Origin: Flavobacteriales bacterium
Lineage (GTDB): Bacteria; Bacteroidota; Bacteroidia; Flavobacteriales_F; PHOS-HE28
Direction of reading: 5' to 3'
NCBI GenBank assembly: GCA_013360395.1
Contig: JABWBQ010000002.1
Span: forward strand, 16,703 to 80,702
Length of the DNA stretch: 64,000 nt
Shown here: piece after piece, positions 9,406-26,242 of the stretch
How positions within the stretch are numbered: position 1 is the first letter of the stretch
Layout of the letters: every line of letters starts with the position of its first letter
The notes under the pieces: model-generated
What the model was told of the DNA's origin: nothing
Databases searched by the model: none
What the model saw: the letters and a program-made list of their open reading frames with translations, nothing else
Translations under genes and position numbers: made by a program

Positions 9406-9882
9406 TCCCAATTCGCACTAAGACGTAGGCCGAACTACTCGGTCTCTTTCCGCATGACTTCTCCGTCGTGATCGTTCCGCAGCCCATGCTATGCAACGCC
9501 CCCGCCGTATCGTCCTGTGTAGTGATCCCTTCGTATCTCTAGCCTACGCCTTCGTGCGAAATGGGATAAGCGGATACGGGTTGAACGGGACGGCCGCGTT
9601 CAGGGCGGCAGCCATGTTCCGCGCCGGGTGTGGTGTGGTTGGTGCACCGAAGTGTAAGGGTGGAGCACTGAACCCGCGTGACGGATCGCAGCGGCACCCC
9701 GCACCCCGAGGGCCCAGAGCGTAGCGCAGCGGAGTCGAAGGGTGCGAGGGGGAGGAGTACAGCGAAGAGCCGGACCCCGAGAACCCTGAGCGGAGGCTCT
9801 GCGAAGTCGAAGGGTGCGAGGGGGCACGCCCAAACCCACCTTCCATTTCACGCTTTCGACCGCGCACCGGTATTTTCGCGGC

Positions 9883-12800
9883 ATGTCAACAGCCGTAGCC
9901 CCTCCATACGTCCCCAAGCACAAGATCCGCGTGGTCACCGCCGCCTCGTTGTTCGATGGTCACGATGCCGCCATCAACATCATGCGGCGGATCATCCAGA
10001 GCACCGGCGCCGAGGTGATCCACCTGGGGCACGACCGCAGCGTGGAGGATGTGGTGAACACCGCGATCCAGGAGGATGCCCACGCCATTGCCATGACCAG
10101 CTACCAGGGCGGGCACGTGGAGTACTTCAAGTACATGCACGACCTGCTGAAGGAGAAGGGCGCGGGGCACATCAAGATCTTCGGCGGCGGCGGGGGTACC
10201 ATCCTGCCCAGCGAGATCGAGGAGTTGCACGCCTACGGCATCACGCGGCTGTACCACCCGGACGATGGCCGCGCCATGGGCCTGCAGGGCATGATCAACG
10301 ACATGCTGGAGCAGGCCGACTACGACCTGAGCGACCAGGTGAACGGTGAGGCGAAGAAGCTGACCCCGCAGAACTGGACGGCCATCGCCAAGCTGATCAG
10401 CACGGCGGAGAACCACCCGCAGGTGTTCGAGAAGATCGCCGACGAGGTCCACAAGAAGGCCGCGGCCAGCAAGGCGCCGGTGCTGGGCATCACGGGCACG
10501 GGCGGTGCGGGCAAGAGCAGCATGGTGGATGAGCTGATCCGTCGTTTCGTGCTGGACCAGCCCGGCAAGACCATCGGCGTGATCAGCGTGGACCCCAGCA
10601 AGCGCAAGACCGGCGGCGCGTTGCTGGGCGACCGCATCCGCATGAACAGCATCCGCGGCGAGCGGGTGTACATGCGCAGTCTCGCTACGCGGCAGAGCAA
10701 CCTCGCGCTCAGCAAGCACGTGAAGGAAGCCGTGGCCATCCTGAAGGCAGCGGGCTTCGACCTGGTGGTGCTGGAGACCAGCGGCATCGGCCAGAGCGAC
10801 ACCGAGATCCTGGATCACAGTGATGTTTCGCTCTACATCATGACGCCCGAGTTCGGTGCGGCCACGCAGCTGGAGAAGATCGACATGCTCGACTTCGCCG
10901 ACGTGGTGGCCATCAACAAGTTCGACAAGCGCGGCGCCCTCGATGCCCTGCGCGACGTGAAGAAGCAGTACAAGCGCAACCACCAACTGTGGGACGCCAA
11001 GGACGAGGACCTGCCCGTGGTGGGCACCATCGCCAGCCAGTTCAACGACCCCGGCACCAACGCCCTCTACGCGCGGCTGATGCGCAAGATCAAGGAGAAG
11101 ACCGGCATCGAGCTCGATAGCAGCTTCCACGCGCACGACGAGATGAGCGAGAAGGTGTGGATCATCCCGCCCGCCAAGAGCCGCTATCTGAGCGAGATCA
11201 GCGAGAGCAATCGGAGGTATGATGGCAAGGTGCGCAAGCAGGCGGAGATCGCGGACAAGCTGTACGGGTTGTATTCGGCTGTACTCACCTTCGGTGGCAC
11301 TGACCTTTTGGAGTCGGAAGTCCCGAGGCCCCTGAGTCACGAGTCGGGCGCGAAAGCGACTCACGACTCACGACTTACGGACTCAGTCGACTTCCTCATT
11401 CAAAGGTTCGAAGAACTGAAGAAAGACCTGGATCCCCACCTCTGGTCCATGCTCCAGAACTGGAAGGCCGAGGAGGAACGCTACTCCGGCGAGTTCTACA
11501 CCTACACCGTGCGAGGCAAGGAGATCAAGGTGCCGAACCACAGCGAGAGCCTCAGTCACCTGAAGATCCCGAAAGTCGCGCTGCCGAAGTTCCGCAGCTG
11601 GGGCGACAAGGTGCGTTGGGCCATGCAGGAGAACACGCCCGGCTTCTTCCCCTACACCGCGGGCATCTACCCGTTCAAGCGCACCGGCGAGGACCCCGCG
11701 CGGATGTTCGCCGGCGAGGGCGGCCCCGAGCGCACCAACAAGCGCTTCCACTACGTGAGCCAGGGCATGCCCGCCAAGCGCCTCAGCACCGCCTTCGACA
11801 GCGTGACGCTCTATGGCAACGACCCCGGCCGTCGTCCCGACATCTACGGCAAGGTGGGCAACAGCGGCGTGAGCATCTGCTGCCTCGACGATGCCAAGAA
11901 GCTCTACAGCGGCTTTGACCTCAGCGACCCGAAGACCTCGGTGTCCATGACCATCAACGGTCCCGCGCCCATGCTGCTCGGCTTCTTCATGAACGCGGCG
12001 ATCGACCAGAACTGTGAGAAGTACATACGGGAGCACGGGTTGGAGAAGGAGGTGGAGAAGAAGATCAAGGAGCGCTGGGAGAAGTTGGAGAAGGCGAATG
12101 GCGAATGGTCAATGGCGAATGGAGGGCGCGGCTTTTCCCATTCACCAACTCCCATTCACCATTCACCTCGACCTCGCTACCACGGAGACATACCTGCGGG
12201 GAACGATGGTCTGGGCTTGCTCCTCCTCGGCATCACCGGCGACCAGGTCCTCCCGAAAGACGTCTACGAGAAGATCAAGGCCGAAACGCTGCAACAGGTC
12301 CGCGGCACCGTGCAGGCCGACATCCTGAAGGAAGACCAGGCGCAGAACACCTGCATCTTCAGCACCGAGTTCGCGCTGCGGCTCATGGGCGACGTGCAGC
12401 AGTACTTCATCGACAAGAAAGTCCGCAACTTTTACAGCGTCAGCATCAGCGGCTACCACATCGCGGAGGCCGGCGCCAACCCCATCAGCCAGCTCGCCTT
12501 CACGCTGGCCAACGGCTTCACCTACGTGGAGTACTACCTGAGCCGCGGCATGGACATCAACGCTTTCGCGCCGAACCTCAGCTTCTTCTTCAGCAACGGC
12601 ATGGACCCCGAGTACGCCGTGATGGGCCGCGTGGCGCGCCGCCTCTGGGCCAAGGCGCTCAAGCACCGCTACGGCGCCGACGAGCGCAGCCAGATGCTGA
12701 AGTACCACATCCAGACCAGCGGCCGCAGCCTCCACGCGCAGGAGATCGACTTCAACGACATCCGCACCACGCTCCAGGCGCTGTACGCCATCTACGACAA

Positions 12801-13401
12801 CTGCAATTCGCTCCACACCAACGCCTACGACGAGGCCATCACCACGCCCACCGAGGAAAGCGTGCGCCGCGCCATGGCCATCCAGCTCATCATCAACAAG
12901 GAGCTCGGCTTGGCCAAGAACGAGAACCCGCTGCAGGGGTCATTCATCATTGAAGAGTTGACAGACCTCGTTGAGGAAGCGGTCTTGACGGAGTTCGACC
13001 GCATCACCGAGCGTGGCGGCGTGCTGGGCGCCATGGAGACCATGTACCAGCGCGGCAAGATCCAGGAGGAAAGTCTCTACTACGAAACGCTGAAGCACAC
13101 CGGCGAATACCCGATCATCGGGGTGAACACCTTCCTCAGCAGTAAAGGATCACCGACGATCCTGCCGAAGGAAGTGATCCGTGCCACGGAAGAGGAGAAG
13201 GAGGCGCAGATCGCAACGGTGGAGAACCTCAAGGCCGCCTACGCCCCCGAAGCCGCCAAGGCCCTGAAGGACCTGCAACAAGCGGCGGTCCACAACGAGA
13301 ATATGTTCGAGGTGCTGATGGAGGCGTGTAAGTATTGCTCGCTGGGGCAGCTGACTGCGGCGATGTTTGAGGTGGGGGGGCAGTACAGGAGGAATATGTA
13401 G
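9883..13401 (+). CDS. icmF: fused isobutyryl-CoA mutase (B12-binding domain + MeaB-like G-protein chaperone + mutase catalytic domain)
   Basis: N-terminal [12 protein letters not shown] (DxHxxG B12-binding motif). Central [13 protein letters not shown]-loop, [21 protein letters not shown] and the NKFD motif of MeaB/ArgK GTPases. C-terminal [20 protein letters not shown]... and [10 protein letters not shown]... of methylmalonyl-CoA-mutase-type TIM barrels. Start taken at ATG 9883 (ORF track begins at GTG 9814). Confidence 0.85.
11321..11395 (+). repeat. in-frame nested palindromic insertion inside icmF (codes [28 protein letters not shown])
   Basis: Outer arms cggaagtc/gacttcc. Inner arms gagtcacgagtcg / cgactcacgactc around gggcgcgaaagc. 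It lies in the linker after the GTPase domain and is absent from the expected mutase consensus. Confidence 0.5.
12093..12168 (+). repeat. in-frame hairpin insertion with tandem 9-mers inside icmF (codes ...[25 protein letters not shown]...)
   Basis: Left arm ggcgaatggcgaatggtcaatggcgaatggag. Right arm ctcccattcaccaactcccattcaccattcacc is its imperfect reverse complement, with loop ggcgcggcttttc. Confidence 0.55.
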
Positions 13402-13430
13402 CAGTAGCGTGGGAGGTTAACTTTGAGGAA

Positions 13431-13736
13431 ATGCCCAAGCTGTACGAGTACTTCGGTCTCATCTTTCTGTTCTACAGCGACGATCATGACCCCATGCATC
13501 TTCATGTGCGGCATGGCGACCGCGAGGGTATCGTCATGCTCATCATCGTGGAGGGCAATCTGGTTGAACTGCGTTGGCGGGCTAAACGCGGGGCGGCCAT
13601 GCTGAATGAAAAGGAACAGCGCGAGGCCGAGGCGTTCGTACGGGCCATGAAGAGCGACATCGTCGCCAAGTGGACCGCCTTCTACGTCGAACACAAGCGC
13701 ATCAAGCCTGAGCGCATAACCCGCCGGATCAAATGA
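13431..13736 (+). CDS. DUF4160 domain protein
   Basis: MPKLYEYFGLIFLFYSDDHDPMHLHVRHGD... matches the DUF4160 N-terminal signature (MP..F.G..I.FY.DH.PPH H). Begins 30 bp after the icmF stop. Confidence 0.75.
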   Translation: MPKLYEYFGLIFLFYSDDHDPMHLHVRHGDREGIVMLIIVEGNLVELRWRAKRGAAMLNEKEQREAEAFVRAMKSDIVAKWTAFYVEHKRIKPERITRRIK

Positions 13737-14050
13737 AGATCGCTGAGGACGTCCGTATCAAGAAGGCCACCTATATGGGTGACTACATCATTCGATTCGC
13801 CTTCACCGATGGCCATGTGAGCGAGATAGACTTCCATCCCTTCCTCAGCGCGGCCGGGCAAAATCCCATGAACAGCCAGTATTTGGATGTCCTGCGCTTC
13901 CGGGAGTTCAAGCTGCACCGCAATGTGGATGTGTACTGGGATGATTGGGAGATGTGCTTCCGGTTCGAGACGCTCTACGCGGGGAAGCTGCCGAAGATGC
14001 CAGCACCGCAACGGCGATCGGTTCGACGAAAGGTGACGGCCAACGCGTGA
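13733..14050 (+). CDS. DUF2442 domain protein
   Basis: ATGA overlap with DUF4160. ...YIIRFAFTDGHVSEIDFHPFL... is typical of DUF2442, the usual partner of DUF4160. Confidence 0.7.
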   Translation: MKIAEDVRIKKATYMGDYIIRFAFTDGHVSEIDFHPFLSAAGQNPMNSQYLDVLRFREFKLHRNVDVYWDDWEMCFRFETLYAGKLPKMPAPQRRSVRRKVTANA

Positions 14051-14058
14051 AGAACGCC

Positions 14059-14355
14059 ATGGTCATCGGCGTGAACACCTTCCTCCGCAGCAAAGGCTCA
14101 CCGACGATCCTGTCCGCCGTACGGCGGATGATCCGTGCCACGGAAGAAGAGAAAGAAGCGCAGATCGCGACGGTGGAGAACCTGAAAGCCGCCTACGCCC
14201 CCGAAGCCGCCAAAGCCCTGAAAGACCTGCAACAGGCGGCGGTGCGGAACGAGAATATGTCCGCGGTGCTGATGGAGGCGTGCAAGTACTGCTCGCTGGG
14301 TCAGCTTACGGCGGCGATGTTCGAAGTGGGGGGGCAGTATAGGAGGAACATGTGA
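14059..14355 (+). pseudogene. duplicated, ~10% diverged 3' fragment of icmF (last ~98 codons incl. stop; first reiteration)
   Basis: ...[17 protein letters not shown]...[73 protein letters not shown] against icmF residues ...[17 protein letters not shown]...[10 protein letters not shown]. Confidence 0.75.
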
Positions 14356-14374
14356 TGATGAGGATGCTGAGCGG

Positions 14375-14412
14375 GATTTGAGGTGGGGGGCAGTACAGAA
14401 GGAATATGTGAC
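14375..14412 (+). repeat. short reiteration of the icmF 3' terminus (gatttgaggtggggggcagtacagaaggaatatgtga)
   Basis: Matches icmF 13365-13401 (gtttgaggtgggggggcagtacaggaggaatatgtag). Third copy of the terminus. Confidence 0.7.
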
Positions 14413-14443
14413 TGGGTACCCGGCTCTGTCTTAACTTCGTGTC

Positions 14444-14659
14444 ATGGCCTCGGCGCACAACTACATCCAACTGTCGTCCCTTCCGGAGGATGTTCGCCAG
14501 CAGGTGCTCGACTTCATCGAGTTCCTGATGCGGCGCCGTCAGGGCAACGAGCCGAAGGAGAAGCGCAAGACACCGGTGCCCGGCCTGGCCAAAGGCATGG
14601 TCACCGTGCCAGCAGACTTCGATGCACCCTTGGATGACTTCAAGGAGTACATGGAATGA
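14444..14659 (+). CDS. DUF2281-like antitoxin (VapB-type partner of the PIN toxin)
   Basis: 71 aa. ...LPEDVRQQVLDFIEFLMRR... and the C-terminal DFDAPLDDFKEYME are characteristic of DUF2281 antitoxins. ATGA overlap with the PIN gene. Confidence 0.6.
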   Translation: MASAHNYIQLSSLPEDVRQQVLDFIEFLMRRRQGNEPKEKRKTPVPGLAKGMVTVPADFDAPLDDFKEYME

Positions 14660-15042
14660 AGCTGTTGCTTGACACGCACGTCCTGCTTTGGTTCCAGGCG
14701 GGCGACCAAGCATTGCCGAAAGCGGCCGAGCAGGCCATCCGATCCGAGGCCAATGAAGCGTTCGTCAGCATGGTCTCCTTCTGGGAGATCGGACTGAAGC
14801 ATAGCATTGGCAAGCTGCCCTTACGTAAGCCGCTGGATGTATTCCTCAGCACGATCACTGAGGCAGCATTCCAGATACTCCCGCTGGACATCCCACACAT
14901 TGTTGCTTCTTCGGCACTGCCGCTGCACCACCGAGACCCGTTCGACCGGATGCTGATCGGGCAGGCGAAGCATGAAGGCATGCACCTGATCACCGTGGAT
15001 GCGCAGTTCCGGGCATACGATGTGCCACTGATCGGTTTGTGA
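14656..15042 (+). CDS. vapC: PIN domain toxin (VapC family)
   Basis: 128 aa. N-terminal LLDTHVLLW and the conserved acidic residue positions of the PIN fold. Translationally coupled to the upstream small gene. Confidence 0.75.
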   Translation: MKLLLDTHVLLWFQAGDQALPKAAEQAIRSEANEAFVSMVSFWEIGLKHSIGKLPLRKPLDVFLSTITEAAFQILPLDIPHIVASSALPLHHRDPFDRMLIGQAKHEGMHLITVDAQFRAYDVPLIGL

Positions 15043-15118
15043 TGACCATCATGCTGAGCGAAGCGAAGTCCCGCCGTAGCGACCGTGGCCGAGGAACGAG
15101 GCGTACGGACGCTGGAGC

Positions 15119-15158
15119 GGGATTCGAGGTGGGGGGGCAGTACAGAAGGAACATGTAG
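15119..15158 (+). repeat. short reiteration of the icmF 3' terminus (gggattcgaggtgggggggcagtacagaaggaacatgtag)
   Basis: Fourth copy of the icmF terminus. Lies between the PIN gene and the Fic gene. Confidence 0.7.
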
Positions 15159-15186
15159 TGCTGTTCAGCATCACCAAGATGAACAC

Positions 15187-15969
15187 ATGCCTGTGGCCCT
15201 GCTAGTCAACACATACCTGCCAGCATATCGCGCACAGCTGAACCTGCCGCTCGCTGAGCTTATCGCCACGCTCGCCGAGGAGCGCAACGGTGGCGGCGCT
15301 GACCTGCTCAACCTGTATGAGAGCGCCGTGGCCAGCAGCCAGATCGAGGGCAGCAAGGTCACCCTCGACCTTTTCAAACGCACCATGGAGGCCGCTGGGA
15401 GCGGGCCCAGACCGCGCGATGTGCAGGAAGTGGCCGATCTGGTGAGCGCCTACCGCTTCGCTCAAGTGAACCCGCTCAACATCGCCAACCTGCTCGAAGC
15501 GCACCGCATCGCATCAGCATTGCTCGTCAACGCCAACGATCGTGGCGCCTGGCGCACAAAGGGCGTTAAGGTGGGCAATGCCATCACCACCGTGTACATG
15601 GCCCCGCATCAGAGCCTGGTGCCATCGCTCATGGACCAGCTGATGGAGGAGACCGGTACGCTCTTGGATCAGAAGCTCACAATCGAAGAGGCGTTCTATT
15701 TCGCCGCGCTCCTGCACCTCGTCTTCGTCAAGGTGCATCCTTTCATCGACGGCAATGGACGCACCGGCCGTCTATTGGAGAAGTGGTTCCTCGAGAGCCA
15801 CATCGGCCCGATCGCATGGAGCATCCGCAGCGAACGCTACCTGATCCGCAACCTCGACGATTACTACGATACACTTGCCGCTGTCGGACCGGATTGGGGT
15901 AGCTTGCAATGGGACCGCTGTCTGCCCTTCATGCTGCTGTTGCCGCAGGCGCTTACCATGAAACGATAG
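15187..15969 (+). CDS. Fic family protein (Fic/Doc AMPylase-type)
   Basis: Canonical Fic motif HPFIDGNGRTGR. Start taken at ATG 15187; the ORF-track extension to 15085 runs through the repeat copy. Confidence 0.8.
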   Translation: MPVALLVNTYLPAYRAQLNLPLAELIATLAEERNGGGADLLNLYESAVASSQIEGSKVTLDLFKRTMEAAGSGPRPRDVQEVADLVSAYRFAQVNPLNIANLLEAHRIASALLVNANDRGAWRTKGVKVGNAITTVYMAPHQSLVPSLMDQLMEETGTLLDQKLTIEEAFYFAALLHLVFVKVHPFIDGNGRTGRLLEKWFLESHIGPIAWSIRSERYLIRNLDDYYDTLAAVGPDWGSLQWDRCLPFMLLLPQALTMKR

Positions 15970-16060
15970 CATTGCGAGGAAGTGATCCGTGCCACCGAGG
16001 AAGAGAAGGAGCCGCAGATCGCGACGGTGGAGAACCTGAAATCCGCCTACGCCCCCGAGG
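15966..16060 (+). repeat. partial internal copy of the icmF tail (corresponds to icmF ~13170-13262: ...[25 protein letters not shown]...)
   Basis: gaagtgatccgtgccaccgaggaagagaaggagccgcagatcgcgacggtggagaacctgaaatccgcctacgcccccgag matches the icmF coding sequence and then diverges. Confidence 0.6.
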
Positions 16061-17173: not shown

Positions 17174-18143
17174 CGATGAGCGGGTGTGTGATGCGCTTGC
17201 CGGGCATCAGGACCTCCAGGAAATACGCGCCTGGGCGCAGTCCGTTGAGGTCCAGGTCGAGGATGTGCATGCCGACCGCCGGCCAGGTCCGCACCGGGCG
17301 GCCCTGGACATCGACGAGGATGATGGTGGTGGCCGTGGGCTCCGGGAGGCTCAACCGGGTGCTGCCGCAGGCGGGGACGGGGTAGAGGTGCGGCACGGCC
17401 TCCGGCGGGCCGTCCATGCCGACCGGTCCCTGGTGGATGACGCCCACGGCATCCAGGTCGAATCCGCCGGAGGCGAAGGGCGTGCTCCACGGGTCGTTGA
17501 TCTTTTGGCCCAGATGGTCGTGCGTGGCGTAGGCCTCCTGGATGCAACCGACCACATCCACGATCCGCACGTGGGTGATGGCGGTCACGTCCAGGCCGGG
17601 AGCGCCGGCGAGCTGGTCCAGGTCGAAGGGGGTGCCGAAGCCGCCGCGGTATTTCCCCGCGAGGTTGTCGACCTGGGTCGCATCCACCGCGCCGAACCCT
17701 TCCACCTGGGTGGTGGTCTGGGTGTTGCTGGTGGCCGGGAAGCGCACGAAGGTGGTGCCGTCGCTGCTCACCTCCACGAAGGCGAGCTCCAGGTAAGTGT
17801 CGCTGAAACTGTTCTCGAACACGGCGAAGTCCCAGCCGGGGCCGTTGGTGAGGGGCTGGGCGAAGGTGAGCGTGGCGGTGCCGCCATCGCCCAGGCTCAC
17901 CACCCCGTTGGTGCCCGCTGCGCCGGTGCCCAGGGAGTCGGCGCCCGTGCTGGCGGGGCCAAGGCCCGGGTCGGTGATGTCCATCGGACCGCGTTGCACG
18001 GTGCAGCCGGTGGCCCAGGCGATGAGGATCGTGCTGTCCTGCGCGATGGCGGTGGTGCCGGGCTGTCCCGCGGGTGGCGGGAACTGCGCACGGGCGGGGA
18101 GCACGGCGAGCAGCAAGGCGGCGCAGAGGGAGGGATGTTTCAT
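17157..18143 (-). CDS. cell-surface protein (DUF4465-like) with T9SS C-terminal domain
   Basis: True start at internal MKHPSLCAALLLAVLPARAQ (signal peptide). The ORF-track N-terminal 168 aa are a low-complexity artefact. C-terminal ...TTIILVDVQGRPV....PGAYFLEV... is CTD-like. Overlaps btuB-like by 4 nt. Confidence 0.5.
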   Translation of the reverse strand: MKHPSLCAALLLAVLPARAQFPPPAGQPGTTAIAQDSTILIAWATGCTVQRGPMDITDPGLGPASTGADSLGTGAAGTNGVVSLGDGGTATLTFAQPLTNGPGWDFAVFENSFSDTYLELAFVEVSSDGTTFVRFPATSNTQTTTQVEGFGAVDATQVDNLAGKYRGGFGTPFDLDQLAGAPGLDVTAITHVRIVDVVGCIQEAYATHDHLGQKINDPWSTPFASGGFDLDAVGVIHQGPVGMDGPPEAVPHLYPVPACGSTRLSLPEPTATTIILVDVQGRPVRTWPAVGMHILDLDLNGLRPGAYFLEVLMPGKRITHPLIVAHAY

Positions 18144-20050
18144 GGTTTCGACGGCCGGTGGAACTGCATGCTCACCCCGAGCTGGTAGTTGCGCATGGGC
18201 ATGGGCCGGTTGAGCATGGCTTCGTAGACCGTGTTGAGGATGTTGTTGCACCGGGCCTCGATGCTGAAGGTGCAGCGCTTCAGCGGGGGCGGCCGGTAGG
18301 CGAACCGCACGTTGGCCAGCCAGTAGGGCTCCAGGTAGGCCCGGTTGTCCGTGCTCGTGTACCGGTAGCCGGTGTAGCTCAGGGTGCCGGTGAGGGAGTA
18401 CCCCTGGTAGTTGAGGCCGAGCCGTCCCCGGCCGCTGTACATCGGCACATAGATCAGCTGTTTGTCCACCGAGGCGTCGTTGGCGCTGGTGCGGATCCGG
18501 TTGGTGGAGACGACGTGGTCGGTGAGCACCGCGAGCTGCACGCCCAGACGGCCCAGGTGGAAGTTCGCGGTGGTGTTCGTTTCCACCCCGCGGCTCCAGA
18601 CCTGCATCAGGTTGCGCGGGCTCCAGTAGGCGGGACCGGGCGTCCACTGGATCCAGTCGTCGATGAGCCGGTTGAACCAGGTGACCTCGCTGCGCACGGT
18701 GAGGCTTCTCCAGGTGCGGTGAAGCACTGCGCCCAGGTCGCCGCTGTAGCCTTGTTCGGAACGCAGGTCCGGGTTGCCGCCGGGCTGCCAGTGGAGGTCG
18801 TTGAACGAGGGCGTCCTGTACACTTTGGAGGCCTGCGCCTTCAGGGTCAACCAGCGCAGCACGACCTGCTCGGCGCCGAGGGAGAAGGTGAACGGCACGG
18901 CATGGCCATCGAGCACTTCCTGCCGCGCGGAGGCGCTGGCCACGAGGTGTTCGTTCCCGCTGGTGTACCGATAGGCGGCGAAGAGGGCGATGCGGTCCTG
19001 CCGGGGCTCCTGGGGGTATCCGTCCGCGGCGGCCCGCGCGTAGGTGCCGTTGAGGCCCAGGTGAACGTGGTGGCGTCGGGCGGGCTGCAAGCGCGTTTCC
19101 GCCTCGGCGATCAAGGTGCGCGAGCGGTTCAAGGCGGGCGCGGCGCCATCGGCGGCGTACCAGTCCAGGCGCTCGTCGAACCAGGCGACGCGTGCGCTGG
19201 TGGTCGCCCGATCCCCGGTGCGCTGCCAGTCCGCCGTGAGCCGCAGGCTTTGGTCGAGCTGCCGTGCGCTGCCTGGCGGTTCCACGGTGGTGGGGGGGAT
19301 GCGCCTGTCGCTTTCCTGGTACCAGGCGTGCGTACCGAGGCGCTGCCGGTCGGTCAGGCGCACATGCACATCGCCCAGGAGGCCGCGTTGCAGGAATGCG
19401 GCATCGGCGCGGTGCTGGTCCGGTCCGTCGCCGGCGGTGTTCCGGGGCAGGGTGAGGTCATTGTCGGCGGTGGCGTTGTACGCGGCAAGGCCCACGCTGA
19501 GCCTTCTTCCGGACCGTTGCACGCGCACCCGTTGCCGCAGGTCGGCGAAGCTGCCGATGGAAAGCCCGGCATCCACGCGCAGGCCGTCGTTGAAGAAGGG
19601 CAGGGCGTGGAGCAGGACCGCACCGCCGACCGCCCCGCTGCCCCAGAGGGCCGTGCTGCCGCCGTATTGCACGGCGATGCTGTTGGCCACCTGCACGGGC
19701 AGGAGCGACAGGTCAAGCTGGCCGTTCATGGGGCTGCCGATGTTGAACCCGTTCCAGAGCACGGCGGTGTGGAAGGCGCTTCCGCCGCGGAACGCGGCGG
19801 TGGCCAGCCCGCCGGGCCCGTAGCTCTTCACGAAGACGGGGGTCTCCTCGGTCAGCAGGCGGCCCAGGTCGGAGAAGCCGTGGTGCGCCAGTGCGGCGCT
19901 GTCCATCACGACGAGTTTCGTTCCGGGCGTCGCGGTGATGCGCGGCGCCACCACTTCCACGGCCCGGAGCAGCACCGTGTCCGTGAGCGACTGGCCGCAG
20001 AGGAGCGACCCCGCGACACAGGCACCGATGGACAGGAGCGGTCGCCGCAT
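18140..20050 (-). CDS. btuB: TonB-dependent outer-membrane receptor, BtuB-like (vitamin B12)
   Basis: 636 aa. N-terminal plug (DTVLLRAVEVVA... TonB-box-like). Beta-barrel with C-terminal ...LGVSMQFHRPSKP ending in an aromatic-rich motif. Sits in a cobalamin-riboswitch operon. Confidence 0.75.
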   Translation of the reverse strand: MRRPLLSIGACVAGSLLCGQSLTDTVLLRAVEVVAPRITATPGTKLVVMDSAALAHHGFSDLGRLLTEETPVFVKSYGPGGLATAAFRGGSAFHTAVLWNGFNIGSPMNGQLDLSLLPVQVANSIAVQYGGSTALWGSGAVGGAVLLHALPFFNDGLRVDAGLSIGSFADLRQRVRVQRSGRRLSVGLAAYNATADNDLTLPRNTAGDGPDQHRADAAFLQRGLLGDVHVRLTDRQRLGTHAWYQESDRRIPPTTVEPPGSARQLDQSLRLTADWQRTGDRATTSARVAWFDERLDWYAADGAAPALNRSRTLIAEAETRLQPARRHHVHLGLNGTYARAAADGYPQEPRQDRIALFAAYRYTSGNEHLVASASARQEVLDGHAVPFTFSLGAEQVVLRWLTLKAQASKVYRTPSFNDLHWQPGGNPDLRSEQGYSGDLGAVLHRTWRSLTVRSEVTWFNRLIDDWIQWTPGPAYWSPRNLMQVWSRGVETNTTANFHLGRLGVQLAVLTDHVVSTNRIRTSANDASVDKQLIYVPMYSGRGRLGLNYQGYSLTGTLSYTGYRYTSTDNRAYLEPYWLANVRFAYRPPPLKRCTFSIEARCNNILNTVYEAMLNRPMPMRNYQLGVSMQFHRPSKP

Positions 20051-20056
20051 GCCCTC

Positions 20057-21169
20057 CTACTGCACGACGATCGTACGCTTCGCGGTGCCGGTGTGCACCA
20101 CGTAGGCCCCGGCCGGCCAGGTGCTCACATCAACGCTGCGCACGCCGGTGCCCACGGGCAGCCGGGCCATGTGCCTGCCGGTGATGTCGTACACCGTGAT
20201 GGCCTGTGCGGCGTGGCCGGTGTTCAGGTGGAGCAGGTCGGTGGCCGGCTGGGGGTAGGCCTGCAGGAGCTCCTGGCTGGTCTCGGGAAGGCTTGTCGGG
20301 CCGGAGGCTGCCACGGGAAGGTCGGGCCGCAGGGCCGGTGCGAAGTCGGTGTACGAACAGCCGAAGAGCTCGCCGTTCGTAACCGTGTCGCTCACGCCCA
20401 TGTTCATGCTCCAATTGCCCAGGTTGGTCGCGCTCCAGGTGCTCCAGAAGGCGGGGGAGCCGCCGATGCCGGCGTGGGTGCCGTAGGTGATGTCGTTCAG
20501 GAAGCCGCCCACGATCACCACCTCGAGGAGCGGGTCGGCCGCGGCGATGGCGTTCATCATCGTCTGGCCGTCGGTGGTCCCGTCGAACCGGTAGCCCCAC
20601 GCATACGAATCCGTTCCGCTGCCATCCTGGAAGTCGATGACCAGCACGGCGCTGTTCGTCCCCGTGCCGACCCAGTAGGTGACGTCGCTGGCGGTGAACT
20701 GGAAGGGGGCGAAGGCGGCGAACGGTTCGGTCGGCGCCAGCGCCGGTGCGAAGTCCGTGTACGAGCAGCCGAACCACTCCCCGTTGGAAAGTACCTCGCC
20801 GATCCCGCTGTTCATGGCCATCGTGGCGATGTCGGTACCGGTCCAGGTGCTCCAGTAGTCGGGTGCGCCACCGATGCCGGCATGCACCCCGTAGGTGATG
20901 TCGTTGAGGAAGCCCCCCACGATGGCCACGTCGAGGTTCGTGTCCGCGGCGGCCACGTCGTTGAGCATGGTCCCGGCCGTGGCGGTCCCGTCGTGCAGGT
21001 AGCCCCAGGCGAAGCTCTGGCCGTCGAAGCTGCCGTCCTGGAAGTCGATCACCAGCACCGACGAATCGGTGCCCGAGCCGACCCAGTACTGCACGTCCTG
21101 GAGGGAGAATTGGGCTTGTGCGCTGGCCGGGGCCAGCAGCAGGGCGAGGGGGAGTATGCGTGTGTTCAT
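20057..21169 (-). CDS. secreted tandem-repeat protein with T9SS C-terminal sorting domain (first gene after the cobalamin riboswitch)
   Basis: Start at internal MNTRILPLALLLAPASAQAQ. Two ~140-aa internal repeats (...VQYWVGSGTDSSVLVIDFQDGS...GGFLNDITYGVHAGIGG... and ...VTYWVGTGTNSAVLVIDFQDGS...GGFLNDITYGTHAGIGG...). CTD ...ITVYDITGRHMARLPVG...GAYVVHTGTAKRTIVVQ. Confidence 0.6.
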   Translation of the reverse strand: MNTRILPLALLLAPASAQAQFSLQDVQYWVGSGTDSSVLVIDFQDGSFDGQSFAWGYLHDGTATAGTMLNDVAAADTNLDVAIVGGFLNDITYGVHAGIGGAPDYWSTWTGTDIATMAMNSGIGEVLSNGEWFGCSYTDFAPALAPTEPFAAFAPFQFTASDVTYWVGTGTNSAVLVIDFQDGSGTDSYAWGYRFDGTTDGQTMMNAIAAADPLLEVVIVGGFLNDITYGTHAGIGGSPAFWSTWSATNLGNWSMNMGVSDTVTNGELFGCSYTDFAPALRPDLPVAASGPTSLPETSQELLQAYPQPATDLLHLNTGHAAQAITVYDITGRHMARLPVGTGVRSVDVSTWPAGAYVVHTGTAKRTIVVQ

Positions 21170-21288
21170 CCGGTGGGGGTGTGTGGTTGCCTTGTTCAAG
21201 CTCCCAGGATGAAGTGCCGTGGAGATGCGCGAAGCGGCGCACGTTCCGGGCTTGCTCCTTTTCCTGGAAGCAAATGCCGTTCGTGCTG

Positions 21289-21445
21289 GCGACAGGTCTT
21301 CTGGCTTGCCCGCCTTCCGGTGCCTTCCCATCCACCTTGCGGTGGGCAGTGGCCTCTTGCCGGTCGGCTGCTTCGGGCTTACAGCTTCAGGTAAAGCCCA
21401 GGATTCGCACCTGGTTCCCTTTTCACCCCGGTGTGACCCGGGGAT
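21289..21445 (-). ncRNA. cobalamin (AdoCbl) riboswitch
   Basis: Minus-strand sequence ...GGGUGAAAAGGGAACCAGGUGCGAAUCCUGG...GGCCACUGCCCACCGCAAGGUGGAUGGGAAGGCACCGG...GCCAGAAGACCUGUCGCC contains the AAxxGGGAA / GGUG.AAUCC core, the GCCACUG B12 box, GGGAAGGC and the GCCAG.AGACCUG 3' element. ~120 nt upstream of the operon's first start codon. Confidence 0.8.
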
Positions 21446-21605
21446 CGACAGCGCGGCGAATGTAGGCGATCGAGGCCGCCGGCCAACAGGGAACGGTCAG
21501 GAACGGGAGAATGGCCCGGGGCCGGAGCGCCGACCGTGCTACGGGGGTGCGGCCGCGGCACTGCGGGGATCGTCAAATAAAAGTAAATAAATACCGGTAT
21601 ATGCT

Positions 21606-23081
21606 TTGAGCGGCTACCTTTGTGCCGGACCGAAAGCAACGACCATGGGAACGACCACAGGGATGATCCTCGACGTGACACGGCTGGCGCCGATGGAGAA
21701 GCACAGCACCATCTTCAACCGCATCGCACGATTGCAGGAGGGGGAGAGCCTGATCATCCACAACGATCACGACCCGGCCCCGTTGCGCTACCAGCTGGCG
21801 CACACCCACCAGGACACCGTGGCGTGGGAGTACCTGGAGCAGGGCCCGCAGTGGTGGAAGGTGAAGCTCACGCGCCGTGCGCCACGCAACGAGAAGGGGC
21901 GCAACATCCTGGATGTGACGCAGCTGGCGCCACACGAGAAGCACGCCACCATCTTCGCCCGCATCGCCCGTCTGCAGGGCGGGGAGAGCCTCACCCTCCA
22001 CAACGACCACGACCCGGTGCCGCTCCGCTACCACCTGGAGGCCGAGCACGGCGATGCCTACGGCTGGGAATACCTGGAGCAGGGGCCCGCATGGTGGAAG
22101 GTGAGGATCACCCGGCGGATCACCGGCGCCGGCGCGGACGGTGCGAATGAGCTGGATGTCACCAAGCTGGCCCCGCGCGAGAAGCATCCCACCATCTTCA
22201 GCCGTTACCACGCCCTGAAAGGCGGCGAGAGCCTCATCATCCACAACGATCACGATCCAAGGCCGCTGTACTACCAGATGCAGGGCGAAATGGGCGATGT
22301 GTTCACCTGGGAATACTTGGAGGAGGGCCCGCGGTGGTGGCGGGTGCGGATCACCAAAAGGTCGGCGGGCAACAGCGGCGAGCGGCTGGGTGAGATGGTG
22401 GTCCGGGACATGCGCAAGGCGGACGTGCTCAAGCGCAACGGCCTGGACTTCTGCTGCCACGGCGACATGACCTTGAACGAGGCCTGTGCGGCCCGGGGCA
22501 TCGACGTGGTGCGCGTGGAACAGGAGCTGCGCGAAGTGGAGAAGGACCAGGGCCGGTCGGCCCTGCCGTACGGCGAATGGGAGATCGACTTCCTGGCGGA
22601 CTTCATCGTCAACATGCACCATCGCTTCCTGCGCAACAACCTGCAGGACATCCGGACCTATGCCGCCAAGGTGGAGCAGGTGCACGGGGACAGCCATCCC
22701 GAGCTCCACCGCGTGAACGACCTGGTGCAGGCGTTGTGCGACGAGCTGACGGCCCACGTGGAGGACGAGGAGAAGACCCTGTTCCCCTACATCCGGCAGA
22801 TGGTGGCCGCCAGGAACGCGGGGCGAACGAGGCCGGCCAGCGCCATGGGCCCGCTGAACGAGAAGGTGGACAAGCTGGTGCTGGAGCATACCGAGGTCGG
22901 CGGCATGATCGACGAGCTGCACGACGTCACCGGCGGGTACGCCCCGCCTGCGGACGCCTGCGCCAGCTACACGCTGCTGTACCGCAAGCTGCAGGAACTG
23001 GAGGACGATACACACATCCACATCGCCCTGGAGAACCACCTCCTGTTCCGCAAGGCGGCGGAGATGGAGCTGATTGTCTGA
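21606..23081 (+). CDS. fusion of three DUF2249 repeats with a RIC/ScdA-type (repair of iron centres) di-iron hemerythrin-like protein
   Basis: Three ~90-aa repeats (LDVT.LAP.EKH.TIF.RIARLQ.GESL..HNDHDP.PLRYQL...W.V.ITRR). Then ScdA_N-like ...KRNGLDFCCHGDMTLNEACAARGID... and hemerythrin-like His/Glu-rich helices. Confidence 0.6.
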   Translation: MSGYLCAGPKATTMGTTTGMILDVTRLAPMEKHSTIFNRIARLQEGESLIIHNDHDPAPLRYQLAHTHQDTVAWEYLEQGPQWWKVKLTRRAPRNEKGRNILDVTQLAPHEKHATIFARIARLQGGESLTLHNDHDPVPLRYHLEAEHGDAYGWEYLEQGPAWWKVRITRRITGAGADGANELDVTKLAPREKHPTIFSRYHALKGGESLIIHNDHDPRPLYYQMQGEMGDVFTWEYLEEGPRWWRVRITKRSAGNSGERLGEMVVRDMRKADVLKRNGLDFCCHGDMTLNEACAARGIDVVRVEQELREVEKDQGRSALPYGEWEIDFLADFIVNMHHRFLRNNLQDIRTYAAKVEQVHGDSHPELHRVNDLVQALCDELTAHVEDEEKTLFPYIRQMVAARNAGRTRPASAMGPLNEKVDKLVLEHTEVGGMIDELHDVTGGYAPPADACASYTLLYRKLQELEDDTHIHIALENHLLFRKAAEMELIV

Positions 23082-23184
23082 TCCGAGCAACGGGCCGTGG
23101 AGGGGATAGTGGACTTCGTGTGAAGGGTGTGCCGGGTGGTGTACTTTTATTGGTGAGCAGGGGGAGGGCGTGGGGGAGAATGTG

Positions 23185-23295
23185 CGTGTGGAGAGGGGGT
23201 GAGAAAGGTGAGGATGGAGAGGGAGTGGGAATGGTGAGAAAGTGAAAAGGAGAGAAGGGAGAGAAGGGAGAGAAAGGAGAGAAGAGGAAGGCGTG
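23185..23295 (+). repeat. polypurine (GA-rich) low-complexity tract
   Basis: gagagggggtgagaaaggtgaggatggagagggagtgggaatggtgagaaagtgaaaaggagagaagggagagaagggagagaaaggagagaagagg... Almost exclusively G/A on the plus strand. Intergenic. Confidence 0.6.
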
Positions 23296-23377
23296 ATCGG
23301 GTGAAGCGGGACGGGCGAATGGGTGCAGGTCCGGAGTTGATGGAGGATAGGGGTGGTTCACGACGAACAACGGGTGG

Positions 23378-24199
23378 ATGGAAATGGGCAAACTGACGAT
23401 AGACGCCAACACGAAGATCGCGGCGCTGCTGCGGGAGAACCCGGAGGCGCTGGAGGCCATCGTTTCGATCTCGCCGAAGTTCACCAAGCTGCGCAACCCG
23501 TTGCTGCGCAAGTTGATGGCCTCGCGCACCACCATCGCCATGGCCAGCCGGATCGGCGGATGCCGGCCGGAGGACTTTTTCGCCAAGCTGCAGCCCCTGG
23601 GCTTTCGGATCGGCAGCGATGCCGTGGGTGAGGCCCCGGCACAGGCCGCGCCGATGCCGGCCTTCATGAAGCAGCTGAAACCTTCCGATGTCGTGGACCT
23701 GGACGTGCGCCCCATCCTCGCCGGCGGTGAGGACCCCTTCAACCTGATCCTGAAGAAGGTGGGTGAGCTGCAAGCGGGACAGGCGCTGCGGATCATCAAC
23801 GACTTCGACCCCGTGCCCCTGGTGCAGCTGCTGGGCAAACGCGGCTTCGAGACCTACGGCGAGGTGCTCCAAGGCGGGGTGTTCCACACCTATTTCTTCA
23901 AGGGCGGCGCCGTGCGGATGGGCGCCACGGAGGCCGGGAAGCGCAGTGCGGACTGGGCGGAGGTGCTCCAGCGATACGAGGGAAGGATGAAGGAGATCGA
24001 CGTGCGTGACCTGGAGATGCCGCTGCCCATGCTGTCCATCCTGGAAGCGCTGGACCAGCTGCCCGCCGACCAAGCGCTGTACGTCAACCACAAGCGCATC
24101 CCCATGTTCCTGCTGCCCGAGCTGGAGGACCGGCGGTTCGACCACCGGAGCTGGGAGGTCGGGGAGGGGGACGTGAAGATGCTGATCTTCAAGGCGTAG
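23378..24199 (+). CDS. DUF1858 + DUF2249 domain protein
   Basis: N-terminal ...KIAALLRENPEALEAIVSI... (DUF1858-like). Two DUF2249-like segments (VDLDVRPILAGGEDPFNLILKKV... and IDVRDLEMPLPMLSILEAL...). Confidence 0.5.
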   Translation: MEMGKLTIDANTKIAALLRENPEALEAIVSISPKFTKLRNPLLRKLMASRTTIAMASRIGGCRPEDFFAKLQPLGFRIGSDAVGEAPAQAAPMPAFMKQLKPSDVVDLDVRPILAGGEDPFNLILKKVGELQAGQALRIINDFDPVPLVQLLGKRGFETYGEVLQGGVFHTYFFKGGAVRMGATEAGKRSADWAEVLQRYEGRMKEIDVRDLEMPLPMLSILEALDQLPADQALYVNHKRIPMFLLPELEDRRFDHRSWEVGEGDVKMLIFKA

Positions 24200-25489
24200 A
24201 TGACCGGCTCCCCGCTCGGCAACGTGGCGCGCACCACATCCCACAGGGTGGTGATCCCCTTCTACGTGTACGGCGCGGCCGCACTGCTGGTCGCCACGGT
24301 GATGCTCCTTGTCTCCCACCGGTCGTTCACGGGCCACTACTTCCAGCCGCACCTCCTGGCCATCACGCACACCATGGCGCTGGGCTGGGCCACCATGATC
24401 ATCCTGGGCGCCGGCCATCAGCTGTTCCCGGTGCTGGTGGAGACCGACCTGTACAGCGAGGGGCTGGCGCGTGCCTCGTTCCTTCTGGCGGCCGTGGGCA
24501 TACCGCTGCTCGTGTACGGTTTCCACAGCTTCGACCTGGGGCTGCCGGCCCGCCTGGGCGGAACGCTGGTGCTCGGGGCGGTGCTGGCCTTCATGGCGAA
24601 CATCGGCATGGGGCTGGTGCGCAGCAAGAGGGAGAACGTCCACGCCGTCTTCGTGTTCACCTCCACGGCCTGGCTGCTGCTCACCGCGGCGCTCGGCCTG
24701 GCGCTGCTGTTCAACTTCACCCGGTCGCTGCTGCCGCACGATTCGGTGCATTACCTCGGCCTGCACGCGCACCTGGGCATCGTGGGGTGGTTCCTGCTGC
24801 TGGTGCTGGGGGTCGGCTCCCGGTTGGTGCCCATGTTCCTCATCTCCAAATACACCGCGCCGCGGCTGCTCTGGGCGGTGTTCATCCTGGTGAACACGGC
24901 GCTGCTGGGCCACACGGTGTTCTTTCTCGTGGACATGCCCGCGTGGTCGGACTACGTGCCCGTGACCATGGTGGCCGCGGCATTGCTGCTCTTCGCCCAC
25001 TACTGCCGCCAGGCCTACAGGCAGCGCATCCGCCGCAAGGTGGACGCCCAGATGCGCGTGACCCTGCTGGCGGTGGCCCTGATGCTGCTGCCCACGGCGG
25101 TGCTGCTGGTCCTCCTCACCTCCATCGCGCTCGGGGGCGGCGCGCAGGTCCGGGTGGCGCTGCTCTACGGTTTCACCATCTTCTTCGGCTGGCTCACGGC
25201 CATCATCCTGGGGATGACCTTCAAGACCCTGCCCTTCATCGTCTGGAACAAGGTGTACCGGCCGCGTGCCACCCTGGGCAGGATGCCCGGGCCCAAGGAC
25301 CTGTTCAGCGACCGCCTCTTCCTGGCGACGGTGGCGGCCTACCTGGCGGGGTTCACCCTCTTCGGCTGGGGCATCGCCCAGGCATCGGTCGTATTGTTGA
25401 AGATCGGTGCCGTGGCCCTGCTGGCCACGGCCTTGCTGTACAACTGGAGCATCGGCAGGATGGTGTTCATCAAGCAACTCGGACCATGA
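24200..25489 (+). CDS. polytopic membrane protein, possibly NnrS-like/heme-copper-type
   Basis: 429 aa with ~12 TM helices and conserved His inside helices (HTMALGW, GAGHQLFP, HLGIVGWF, LGHTVFF). Sits in a DUF2249/RIC/Rrf2 context. The family assignment is inferred only. Confidence 0.35.
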   Translation: MTGSPLGNVARTTSHRVVIPFYVYGAAALLVATVMLLVSHRSFTGHYFQPHLLAITHTMALGWATMIILGAGHQLFPVLVETDLYSEGLARASFLLAAVGIPLLVYGFHSFDLGLPARLGGTLVLGAVLAFMANIGMGLVRSKRENVHAVFVFTSTAWLLLTAALGLALLFNFTRSLLPHDSVHYLGLHAHLGIVGWFLLLVLGVGSRLVPMFLISKYTAPRLLWAVFILVNTALLGHTVFFLVDMPAWSDYVPVTMVAAALLLFAHYCRQAYRQRIRRKVDAQMRVTLLAVALMLLPTAVLLVLLTSIALGGGAQVRVALLYGFTIFFGWLTAIILGMTFKTLPFIVWNKVYRPRATLGRMPGPKDLFSDRLFLATVAAYLAGFTLFGWGIAQASVVLLKIGAVALLATALLYNWSIGRMVFIKQLGP

Positions 25490-25806
25490 GCGCACCCGGA
25501 CAGGACGAATTGATCGACAAGGCACTGGATGCCCTGCGGACCGTGGACGACCCCGAGGTGGGCCTCAACGTGGTGGACCTCGGGCTGATCTACGAGATCG
25601 AGATCGGTCCGGACGCGCGGGAAGTGGACTGCCTGATGACCTTCACCACGGAGTTCTGCCCCATGGGAGCATCGATCCAGGCGGGCGTGACCGAAGCGCT
25701 GAAGATGACCTTCCCCGAGGCGGCGGTGCAGGTGCGCATCACCTTCGACCCGCCCTGGAGCCAGTCCATGATCTCCGAGGCGGGCCGGATGTTCCTTGGC
25801 GGATAG
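25486..25806 (+). CDS. DUF59 / Fe-S cluster assembly (SufT/MIP18-like) protein
   Basis: ~106 aa. ...DPEVGLNVVDLGLIYEIEI... with the conserved Cys (FTTEFCPMG) of the DUF59 family. ATGA overlap with the upstream gene. Confidence 0.65.
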   Translation: MSAPGQDELIDKALDALRTVDDPEVGLNVVDLGLIYEIEIGPDAREVDCLMTFTTEFCPMGASIQAGVTEALKMTFPEAAVQVRITFDPPWSQSMISEAGRMFLGG

Positions 25807-26242
25807 GACCATGCTGAGCCTGACGTGCAAGGCCGCCATCAAGGCCGTGACCTTCCTGGGGTCGCGGCTCGCCTCCGGCGAACGCTCGAGCCTGAAGGAG
25901 GTGGCAGCGTTCATCGACGAGAACGAGCACACCGTGGGCAAGCTGCTGCAACGGCTGGTGAAGGCCGGGGCCATCAAGAGCGCCAAGGGACCCAACGGCG
26001 GCTTCTACATGACGCCCCGCCAGGTGGAACAGCGGGTGATGCGCATCGTGGAGGCGATCGACGGCAAGGCGGTCTTCCAGGAGTGCGGCCTGGGCTTGCG
26101 CCGGTGCAGCGATGCGCGTCCGTGCCCCTTCCATGAACGCTACAAGCCCATCCGCGACCAGTTCCGGCAGCTGTGCGAGCACCAGCGTGTGAAGGACCTG
26201 TATGAAGAGGTCAACAGCGGGTCGGCGTACCTGGTGGGTTGA
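25796..26242 (+). CDS. Rrf2 family transcriptional regulator (NsrR/IscR-like, 3-Cys cluster-binding)
   Basis: N-terminal wHTH (...AIKAVTFLGSR...SLKEVAAFIDENEHTVGKLLQRLVKAGAIKSAKGPNGGF). Cys triad C-x7-C-x5-C (CGLGLRRCSDARPC). Confidence 0.75.
   Translation: MADRTMLSLTCKAAIKAVTFLGSRLASGERSSLKEVAAFIDENEHTVGKLLQRLVKAGAIKSAKGPNGGFYMTPRQVEQRVMRIVEAIDGKAVFQECGLGLRRCSDARPCPFHERYKPIRDQFRQLCEHQRVKDLYEEVNSGSAYLVG

Follow-up and report, generated by a model that had tools for sequence, protein, structure and literature searches.

A cobalamin riboswitch on the minus strand of a Flavobacteriales contig (JABWBQ010000002.1; the 64-kb stretch of it that was analysed is called the window here) very probably forms the 5′ leader of a vitamin B12-acquisition operon in an uncultured, high-G+C lineage of this order, in which secreted capture proteins would feed a BtuG-BtuB import core. 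The riboswitch itself is an ordinary member of the Rfam family RF00174, and a cobalamin riboswitch before a btuB operon is a textbook arrangement; what is new is the content of the regulon, which joins the BtuB-BtuG core to two unnamed protein families carrying type IX secretion system (T9SS) sorting domains in environmental Flavobacteriales. A covariance search (cmscan, Rfam) matched RF00174 over positions 21274-21464 (-) with 108.9 bits (E = 2.3e-26; gathering score, 31.5 bits) across model positions 1-189 of 189, and no other Rfam family rose above its threshold on either strand of the window. This segment is a full-length cobalamin riboswitch, probably of class-I type, its long P6 extension being typical of the classical, usually adenosylcobalamin-responsive class. 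An earlier, sequence-only reading had placed a cobalamin riboswitch at 21289-21445, which is the core of the match; the four motifs that it quoted from the minus strand (GGUGAAAAGGGAACCAGGUGCGAAUCCUGG, the B12 box GCCACUG, GGGAAGGC and GCCAGAAGACCUGUC) can all be read directly where it had put them, and the RF00174 scan that it had proposed as a check returned a score far above threshold. The core elements AAAAGGGAAC, GGUG and AAUCC, in that order, and GCCAGAAGACCUG are all present alongside the B12 box.

The aptamer is followed by four tightly packed genes, separated by a 6-nucleotide (nt) gap, a 4-nt overlap and an 11-nt overlap, which we call gene 1, btuB, gene 3 and btuG (Table 1). The first plausible start codon, ATG 21169, lies 104 nt past the end of the RF00174 match and 120 nt past the end of the interval first proposed, in agreement with the ~120 nt given in the sequence-only reading, while ATG 21331, which opens the longer open reading frame (ORF) 20057-21331, falls inside the aptamer. 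We read ATG 21169 as the real start of gene 1 because a signal peptide (MNTRILPLALLLAPASAQAQ) opens there, homologues begin there and an independent call, made on a contig with 99% identity, assigns the gene 370 amino acids (aa), with 636, 328 and 345 aa for the genes that follow; the same three observations bear out the earlier view that the N-terminal extension of ORF 20057-21331 is spurious and that a downstream Met is the start. The coordinates first given are correct for three of the four genes, the start of btuG being likelier at ATG 17167 than at TTG 17173. The accepted frames are those with a G+C content at third codon positions of 0.88-0.91, domain hits and independent gene calls. Two competing frames over gene 1 and btuB were rejected as high-G+C shadow ORFs, namely ORF 20130-21335 (-), an alternative sense frame whose 401-aa product is rich in Arg, Pro and Gly and of low complexity, and the antisense ORF 18074-21394 (+), a frame of 1106 aa. 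Both could mislead gene callers.

The closest solved relatives of the transporter are BtuB2 and BtuB3 of Bacteroides thetaiotaomicron (8bmx_C, 6.8e-55; 8p97_A, 8p98_A), and it scores far below the cut-offs of the proteobacterial equivalogs TIGR01779 and NF007926 (71.5 vs 599.7 and 28.7 vs 836 bits). By these scores the transporter is not a member of the E. coli-type BtuB equivalog. The product of btuG matches 8bmx_D over its full length (2e-69, residues 7-346), 8p97_B (3.7e-65) and PF16819 DUF5074 (1.4e-28), and the Cys of its lipobox-like LGSSSC motif aligns with a Cys in the N-terminal region of the 8bmx_D chain. PMC10404256 identifies these PDB entries and lists 8BMX as BtuG2-CNCbl; chain D of that entry was deposited as a 'YncE family protein'. 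These two genes are predicted to encode the outer-membrane import core of Bacteroidota, consisting of BtuB and its lipoprotein lid BtuG. The btuB-type uptake operon of the sequence-only reading is real in that the operon is tight, has four genes and includes a BtuB-type transporter; the transporter is of the Bacteroidota BtuB-BtuG type and not the E. coli type, and the two accessory proteins with predicted T9SS sorting domains had been left unnamed.

The tandem repeats of gene 1 are 63% identical to each other (alignment A4), and its T9SS type A sorting domain passes both curated cut-offs (PF18962 and TIGR04183). Its more than 300 homologues, none of them with a functional name, come from uncultured Flavobacteriales as well as from the genera Crocinitomix, Croceimicrobium, Cryomorpha and Owenweeksia, and a profile search with the repeat collected 1179 cluster representatives, each protein holding between one and seven copies. 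PF14478 DUF4430, the domain at the C-terminus of transcobalamins (PMC4350170), gave no match at E = 10 in the window repeats or in 16 aligned full-length homologues. Two distant members of the family, P0273 and P0276, do pass PF14478 (37.0 and 34.9 vs the cut-off of 23.8), with matches that lie inside or overlap the repeats. In the predicted structure the repeats have the same fold as the DUF4430/transcobalamin β-domain, and the best structural matches of the gene 1 model outside the C-terminal sorting domain (CTD) are all cobalamin carriers. We conclude that the gene 1 repeat is a putative divergent DUF4430/transcobalamin-β-like domain.

Gene 3 has at least 8000 homologues, and among the matches listed the only names are T9SS sorting-domain protein or hypothetical protein. 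The window protein itself falls just under both sorting-domain cut-offs (18.8 vs 27 and 22.5 vs 23). PF18962 is nevertheless matched by every one of the 19 aligned homologues; a profile of the family finds solved CTDs (3.7e-6), and CTD structures are also matched by the model, with a template modelling (TM) score of 0.75. Its N-terminal domain matched no Pfam family at E = 10 in the window protein or the 19 aligned members, and PDB profile searches with the N-terminal domains of gene 1 and gene 3 matched no solved chain, a comparison that presumably included BtuH2 and BtuK1. BtuJ/DUF4465 (PF14717) was considered for both genes and discarded, as neither the window proteins nor their aligned homologues matched it at E = 10.

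The link between the two families and B12 uptake comes from related loci, of which up to 78 were compared, with individual tests covering 51, 59 or 63 of them. The closest genome match is a Flavobacteriales metagenome-assembled genome (MAG) at 67% identity, and two short Logan contigs reach 99%; contig L079, at 99% identity, carries the same riboswitch. A riboswitch-like sequence was detected by nhmmer in 72 of the 78 loci, the six exceptions being mostly without upstream DNA, and in 11 of 11 loci scanned with Rfam RF00174 lay upstream on the same strand. By tblastn, nearly all of the 78 loci contain gene 1, btuB, gene 3 and btuG together, gene 3 being absent at times, and the genes stand in at least four orders: gene 1-btuB-gene 3-btuG, btuB-gene 1-gene 3-btuG, gene 1-gene 3-btuB-btuG and gene 1-btuB-btuG-gene 3. 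The arrangement with btuB directly after the riboswitch, followed by the gene 1 homologue, was seen in L018-L020, L023, L025, L028, L041 and L062.

Fusion proteins tie the parts together further. P0296 (L081 102-2543) combines a DUF5074 (BtuG-type) propeller with two gene-1 repeats and a CTD. P0273 (L082 4562-8314) consists of six gene-1 repeats, a domain of the gene-3 type (45% identical across 324 aa, 2e-74) and a T9SS CTD; its gene follows those for a Plug transporter and a DUF5074 protein in an operon headed by an RF00174 riboswitch of its own (89.4 bits), and in P0276 a gene-3-type domain sits in the middle of seven gene-1 repeats. Because the riboswitch, the co-occurrence despite shuffled gene order and the fusions link the parts, the four genes appear to form one functional module under the riboswitch. 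The riboswitch is a dependable genomic marker by which such accessory proteins can be located.

We propose that the gene 1 and gene 3 proteins would be exported by the T9SS to the cell surface or the medium, capture corrinoids there and hand them over to BtuG-BtuB, and that they would take the role of the BtuH, BtuJ and BtuK lipoproteins of Bacteroides, which are without a T9SS sorting domain. That the gene 1 family is a new class of bacterial extracellular corrinoid binders, exported together with the gene 3 family by the T9SS and feeding BtuG-BtuB, stands in our judgement at an even chance. A possible, though unlikely, alternative is that the products of genes 1 and 3 bind no corrinoid and are surface proteins under B12 control that serve some other purpose, for instance by tethering or shielding BtuBG, freeing B12 from foreign carriers or adhering to B12-producing cells. 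Even at E = 10, neither Pfam nor the PDB gave a sequence match to the gene 1 repeats, which show no detectable sequence similarity to characterised B12 binders. The β-domain of the transcobalamin family binds B12 jointly with an α-domain, and this partner is absent from gene 1; the gene 3 model, with a mean predicted local distance difference test score (pLDDT) of 68, gives generic β-sandwich and CTD matches and nothing specific. These points favor proteins that bind no corrinoid, and together with three others they weigh against corrinoid capture as a whole: the DUF4430 link of gene 1 comes from a model with a pLDDT of 76 and from distant intermediates, no T9SS machinery genes were identified in the parts of the window examined, and the operon is without inner-membrane btuFCD, no btuFCD, cob or cbi genes having been found among the 39 ORFs scanned (all before 42253). 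What speaks against a function unrelated to corrinoid binding is that both families stay with riboswitch-controlled btuB-btuG loci in several genera while the gene order is shuffled, that they are fused to DUF5074 propellers and to each other, that the best structural matches of gene 1 beyond the CTD are all cobalamin carriers, and that most of the B. thetaiotaomicron accessory proteins tested bind B12 (BtuH, BtuJ and BtuK1 do; BtuK2 is the exception). If the gene 1 and gene 3 proteins do bind corrinoids, the 'extracellular relay' model of B12 capture would extend beyond the gut to carriers such as Crocinitomix, Croceimicrobium, Cryomorpha, Owenweeksia and many wastewater and aquatic MAGs, and scavenging of B12 would be a new physiological role for the T9SS, tying this system to vitamin acquisition. 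At least 1179 (gene 1) and 8000 (gene 3) uncharacterised proteins would then gain functional names, and the DUF4430/transcobalamin β-domain would gain an ancient, stand-alone B12-capture function in bacteria.

The nearest known counterparts are btu loci 1-3 of B. thetaiotaomicron, in which BtuG-BtuB receives cobamides captured by the surface lipoproteins BtuJ (a DUF4465 jelly-roll), BtuH and BtuK. Common to these loci and ours are a riboswitch-controlled operon, a TonB-dependent BtuB with the propeller lipoprotein BtuG, and further extracellular accessory proteins encoded in the operon, and the BtuGH fusion of B. thetaiotaomicron is mirrored by P0296, in which an accessory domain is likewise joined to a propeller. 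To our knowledge, the Bacteroides accessory proteins BtuG, BtuH, BtuJ and BtuK are all lipoproteins of gut species, each with its own mode of cobamide binding. The accessory proteins here, in contrast, carry T9SS sorting domains (a probable one in gene 3) instead of lipoprotein anchors, sequence searches with their domains gave no match to DUF4465 in Pfam or to a solved chain, the operon does not include btuFCD, and the host belongs to an environmental high-G+C Flavobacteriales lineage and not to gut Bacteroides. From animal carriers (the β-domain of transcobalamin, intrinsic factor and haptocorrin, PF14478) the gene 1 protein differs in that the window protein gives no Pfam match and in that the repeats of its family form tandem arrays with between one and seven copies, lack the α-domain half of the B12 pocket and are attached to a T9SS sorting domain. 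The T9SS cargoes of which we know are proteases, adhesins, glycanases and motility proteins, and the roles of known type A cargo such as the gingipain RgpB and mirolase differ from the B12 capture proposed here. A literature search combining btuB, cobalamin riboswitch and T9SS listed no paper on B12 uptake by T9SS cargo, and DUF4430 is named alongside cobalamin in just two of the papers searched, an absence that does not prove novelty.

How the riboswitch would control the operon is suggested by the sequence between the aptamer and gene 1. The regulatory hairpin P13 is kept directly 3′ of the aptamer in nearly all related loci, and its stem shows compensating changes. Where both loops could be read, the L5 and L13 loops form the pairs CCUG and CAGG in 39 loci and CCCG and CGGG in 10, with no mixed pair, a compensatory pattern that matches the kissing-loop prediction for this riboswitch class. 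In L018, L019, L020 and L023, L13 reads CGCGG instead of CAGG or CGGG; these loci, whose L5 was not parsed, are excluded from the count. A third element, CUUCAUCCUGGGAGC, sits ~40 nt 3′ of P13. Folded without constraint, the window leader has a minimum-energy structure (-39.6 kcal/mol) in which this element pairs with both strands of the opened P13 (GCUUCCAGGA with UCCUGGGAGC, and GGAG of P13 with CUUC) and the start region is 68% unpaired. With P13 masked, which mimics the ligand-locked state, UUCAUCC pairs instead with GGAUGAA, the segment that holds ATG 21169. The same switch logic is found with other sequences in L001 (ACUUCAUU/GAUGAAGU), L008 (GGUAUUCC/GGAAUACC) and L042 (AGUUUUUUGUUC/GAACAAAAAACU). 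Across the loci folded, the P13-to-start-codon distance is nearly always ~90-119 nt; in 44 of 59 loci the duplex between the 5′ strand of P13 with L13 and the downstream element is more stable than its shuffled counterparts (z < -2), and a segment complementary to the start overlaps the P13-complementary element likewise in 44 of 59. Masking P13 lowered the accessibility of the start region in 26 of 51 loci and raised it in 3 (Wilcoxon p = 1.7e-5).

Translational repression by B12 through an anti-start-codon element is the best-supported mechanism, and we lean toward it by a little. When intracellular (adenosyl)cobalamin is plentiful, it would bind the aptamer, L5 (CCUG) would kiss L13 (CAGG) and thereby lock the P13 hairpin, and the locked hairpin would free CUUCAUCCUGGGAGC to pair with the start region GGAUGAA of gene 1, turning off translation of gene 1 and lowering expression of the operon. 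Under B12 scarcity, P13 would open and both of its strands would sequester CUUCAUCCUGGGAGC, leaving the start codon accessible. A review describes the btu riboswitches of B. thetaiotaomicron as repressing translation (PMC13616437), and by proteomics the btu loci of this species are strongly repressed in B12-replete medium (PMC10404256). Four aspects of the folding are less favorable to translational control and count against it: the effect of masking is small (mean accessibility falls from 0.52 to 0.45, and 22 of 51 loci are unchanged), the start region is already paired without any constraint in L001, L008, L038 and L042, equilibrium folding as a whole supports the switch at a significant but modest level, and leaders of the Crocinitomix type use a different register in which hairpins followed by U-rich runs are possible terminators.

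This last feature bears on the question of whether the riboswitch instead acts mainly on transcription, by B12-induced premature termination in the leader, either intrinsic or Rho dependent, which we regard as a doubtful but serious alternative. A stable hairpin, GUGCGCCGCUUCGCGCAU, stands between P13 and the start codon, and at the equivalent position in the leaders of low-G+C relatives (L055, L042) hairpins are followed by U-rich runs. The window hairpin, however, has no U tract, and a terminator scan of the minus strand found no intrinsic terminator in the leader; in L038 and L042, moreover, the U-rich run forms an exact complement of the first codons (AGUUUUUUGUUC to GAACAAAAAACU), which fits a start-codon sequestor better than a terminator, and the literature on Bacteroides btu riboswitches describes repression at the level of translation (PMC13616437). 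The two effects may also coexist, as Rho-dependent polarity is a frequent consequence when translation of the leading gene in a long operon is blocked. That the aptamer is a decayed relic, or an ON switch, is very improbable, as it has no specific support beyond relatives in which the long helix that the P13 5′ strand with L13 forms with the downstream element is followed by a U-rich run and could be read as a terminator prevented by B12, and it is contradicted by the full-length, high-scoring RF00174 match with every conserved element in place, by the conservation of aptamer and platform in 72 loci, by the complementarity of the U-rich runs to the start region and by the B12 repression of uptake operons under this class wherever tested (PMC13616437, PMC10404256).

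Translational repression through an intermediate element would set this leader apart from that of E. coli btuB. With that leader and other RF00174 members it shares the aptamer family, the B12 box, the position upstream of an outer-membrane B12 transporter and a P13 read out through the L5 kissing loop. Unlike in the E. coli leader, no start codon follows closely after P13; the AAGGAG in P13 is ~85 nt upstream and not conserved, and the start, ~100 nt downstream, is apparently controlled by a third, intermediate element, which fits the little use that translation in Bacteroidota makes of Shine-Dalgarno pairing. This AAGGAG, in the 3′ strand of P13, had been considered as a Shine-Dalgarno sequence for GTG 21242 and was rejected, since gene 1 is read in another frame than that GTG and relatives do not keep the purine run.

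At the other end of the leader, the sequence TACATTCG overlaps the first 8 nt of the RF00174 match. TAnnTTTG is the -7 consensus of Bacteroides promoters, and TAnnTT[T/C]G abuts the aptamer on its 5′ side in 59 of the 63 related loci compared, its columns being invariant in an alignment of nine leaders (alignment A3). The first eight bases of the match are read as the -7 box of a promoter and not as RNA structure, and since this box sits at the 5′ edge of the aptamer, transcription probably starts a few bases before P1. As the conserved box makes up the first eight bases of the match, Rfam models of Bacteroidota riboswitches may routinely take in promoter DNA. A -33 promoter element is not claimed: the window has a TTG at 19-nt spacing, yet no more than 9 of 59 relatives share it.

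Table 1. Features of the riboswitch leader, the B12-acquisition operon and the adjoining genes, in window coordinates
Feature	Position	Strand	Remarks
Candidate Bacteroidota-type -7 promoter box TACATTCG	21457-21464	-	Consensus TAnnTTTG; 59/63 loci
Cobalamin riboswitch aptamer	21274-21464	-	RF00174, full length with P6 extension
L5 loop bases CCUG	21388-21391	-	Predicted kissing-loop partner; covaries with L13 across loci
B12 box GCCACUG	21347-21353	-	Read in the sequence; aligns to the conserved GCCACUG of the model
P13 regulatory hairpin UUGCUUC-CAGGAAAA-GGAGCAA	21252-21273	-	Directly 3′ of the aptamer; L13 CAGG at 21266-21263
Putative switching (anti-start-codon) element CUUCAUCCUGGGAGC	21200-21214	-	Predicted to pair with opened P13/L13 or with the start-codon region
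Predicted translation initiation region CCGGAUGAA	21165-21173	-	Start codon 21169-21167
Gene 1, 370 aa	20057-21169	-	Signal peptide, two ~130-aa tandem repeats, T9SS type A C-terminal sorting domain
btuB, 636 aa	18140-20050	-	Predicted Bacteroidota-type TonB-dependent cobalamin transporter, Plug and β-barrel
Gene 3, 328 aa	17157-18143	-	Signal peptide, ~220-residue β-sandwich domain (predicted), probable T9SS C-terminal sorting domain
btuG, 345 aa	16130-17167	-	Surface lipoprotein, seven-bladed β-propeller (predicted); 8bmx_D, PF16819
DUF4160/DUF2442 pair, DhiT-like	13431-14050		Between icmF and btuG
Small ORF and PIN-domain gene	ends 15042		Between icmF and btuG
Fic-domain gene	ends 15969		Between icmF and btuG

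The operon lies close to a second locus concerned with B12. ORF 9814-13401 (+) encodes IcmF (NF045497, 1765 vs the cut-off of 1500 bits), with the B12-binding domain PF02310, the MeaB GTPase PF03308 and the mutase PF01642, and IcmF requires adenosylcobalamin; the sequence-only reading was right about this B12-dependent gene and about there being only toxin-antitoxin (TA) cassettes, in the form of DUF4160/DUF2442, PIN and Fic genes, between it and the operon. The 3′ end of icmF is repeated within 13169-16058 (+). A 293-nt copy at 14063-14355 corresponds to IcmF residues 1101-1195 (89% protein identity, 3e-48), the terminal 47-nt unit (beginning GAGGTGGGGGGGCAGTACAGRAGGAAYATGT) recurs at 13355, 14309, 14365 and 15112, and an internal 82-nt unit recurs at 13169, 14123 and 15977, its last copy ending ~70 nt from the btuG stop. 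Copies of the icmF 3′ end flank each TA-type cassette (DUF4160/DUF2442; the small ORF with PIN; Fic), and no integrase was seen near the cassettes. It looks as if the cassettes were added serially and site-specifically into the 3′ end of icmF, regenerating the reading frame each time, and since ~70 nt separate the oldest icmF 3′ remnant from the btuG stop, icmF and btuG were probably immediate convergent neighbors before the cassettes arrived. The earlier statement that the array landed without disrupting either locus holds, and icmF appears undisrupted because each insertion restored its end; the array did not land in neutral DNA, having apparently been inserted into the end of icmF itself. 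A Zeta-toxin/AAA-like ORF at 6656-7483 (+), upstream of icmF, shows that toxin-like genes are not confined to the icmF-btuG array.

The two loci had also been described as functionally linked, a description that holds only loosely, in that both concern B12. Selection for a B12 'supra-operon' would account for their closeness, and the cofactor requirement of IcmF and the likely former adjacency are in its favor; we nevertheless consider it improbable, as icmF and the operon are convergent, separate transcription units, the Rfam scan of the window found no riboswitch before icmF, and in none of the 78 related loci did tblastn detect icmF in the ~3 kb downstream of btuG. We find no evidence that the adjacency has functional meaning.

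Two observations concern neighboring genes and a relative. The closest genome relative, L001, carries a fluoride riboswitch (RF01734, 52.4 bits) at 5862-5927 (-), ~800 nt upstream of its btu riboswitch and on the opposite strand, which has no counterpart in the window. The divergent neighbor of the riboswitch in the window, 21639-26242 (+), begins with an unusual protein in which three DUF2249 repeats are fused to a di-iron protein of iron-sulfur repair (RIC/ScdA/YtfE; TIGR03652, 208 bits), followed by a DUF1858 and DUF2249 protein, a 429-aa protein without a family, a FeS_assembly_P protein and an Rrf2 regulator, and looks like a nitrosative or iron-sulfur stress cluster.

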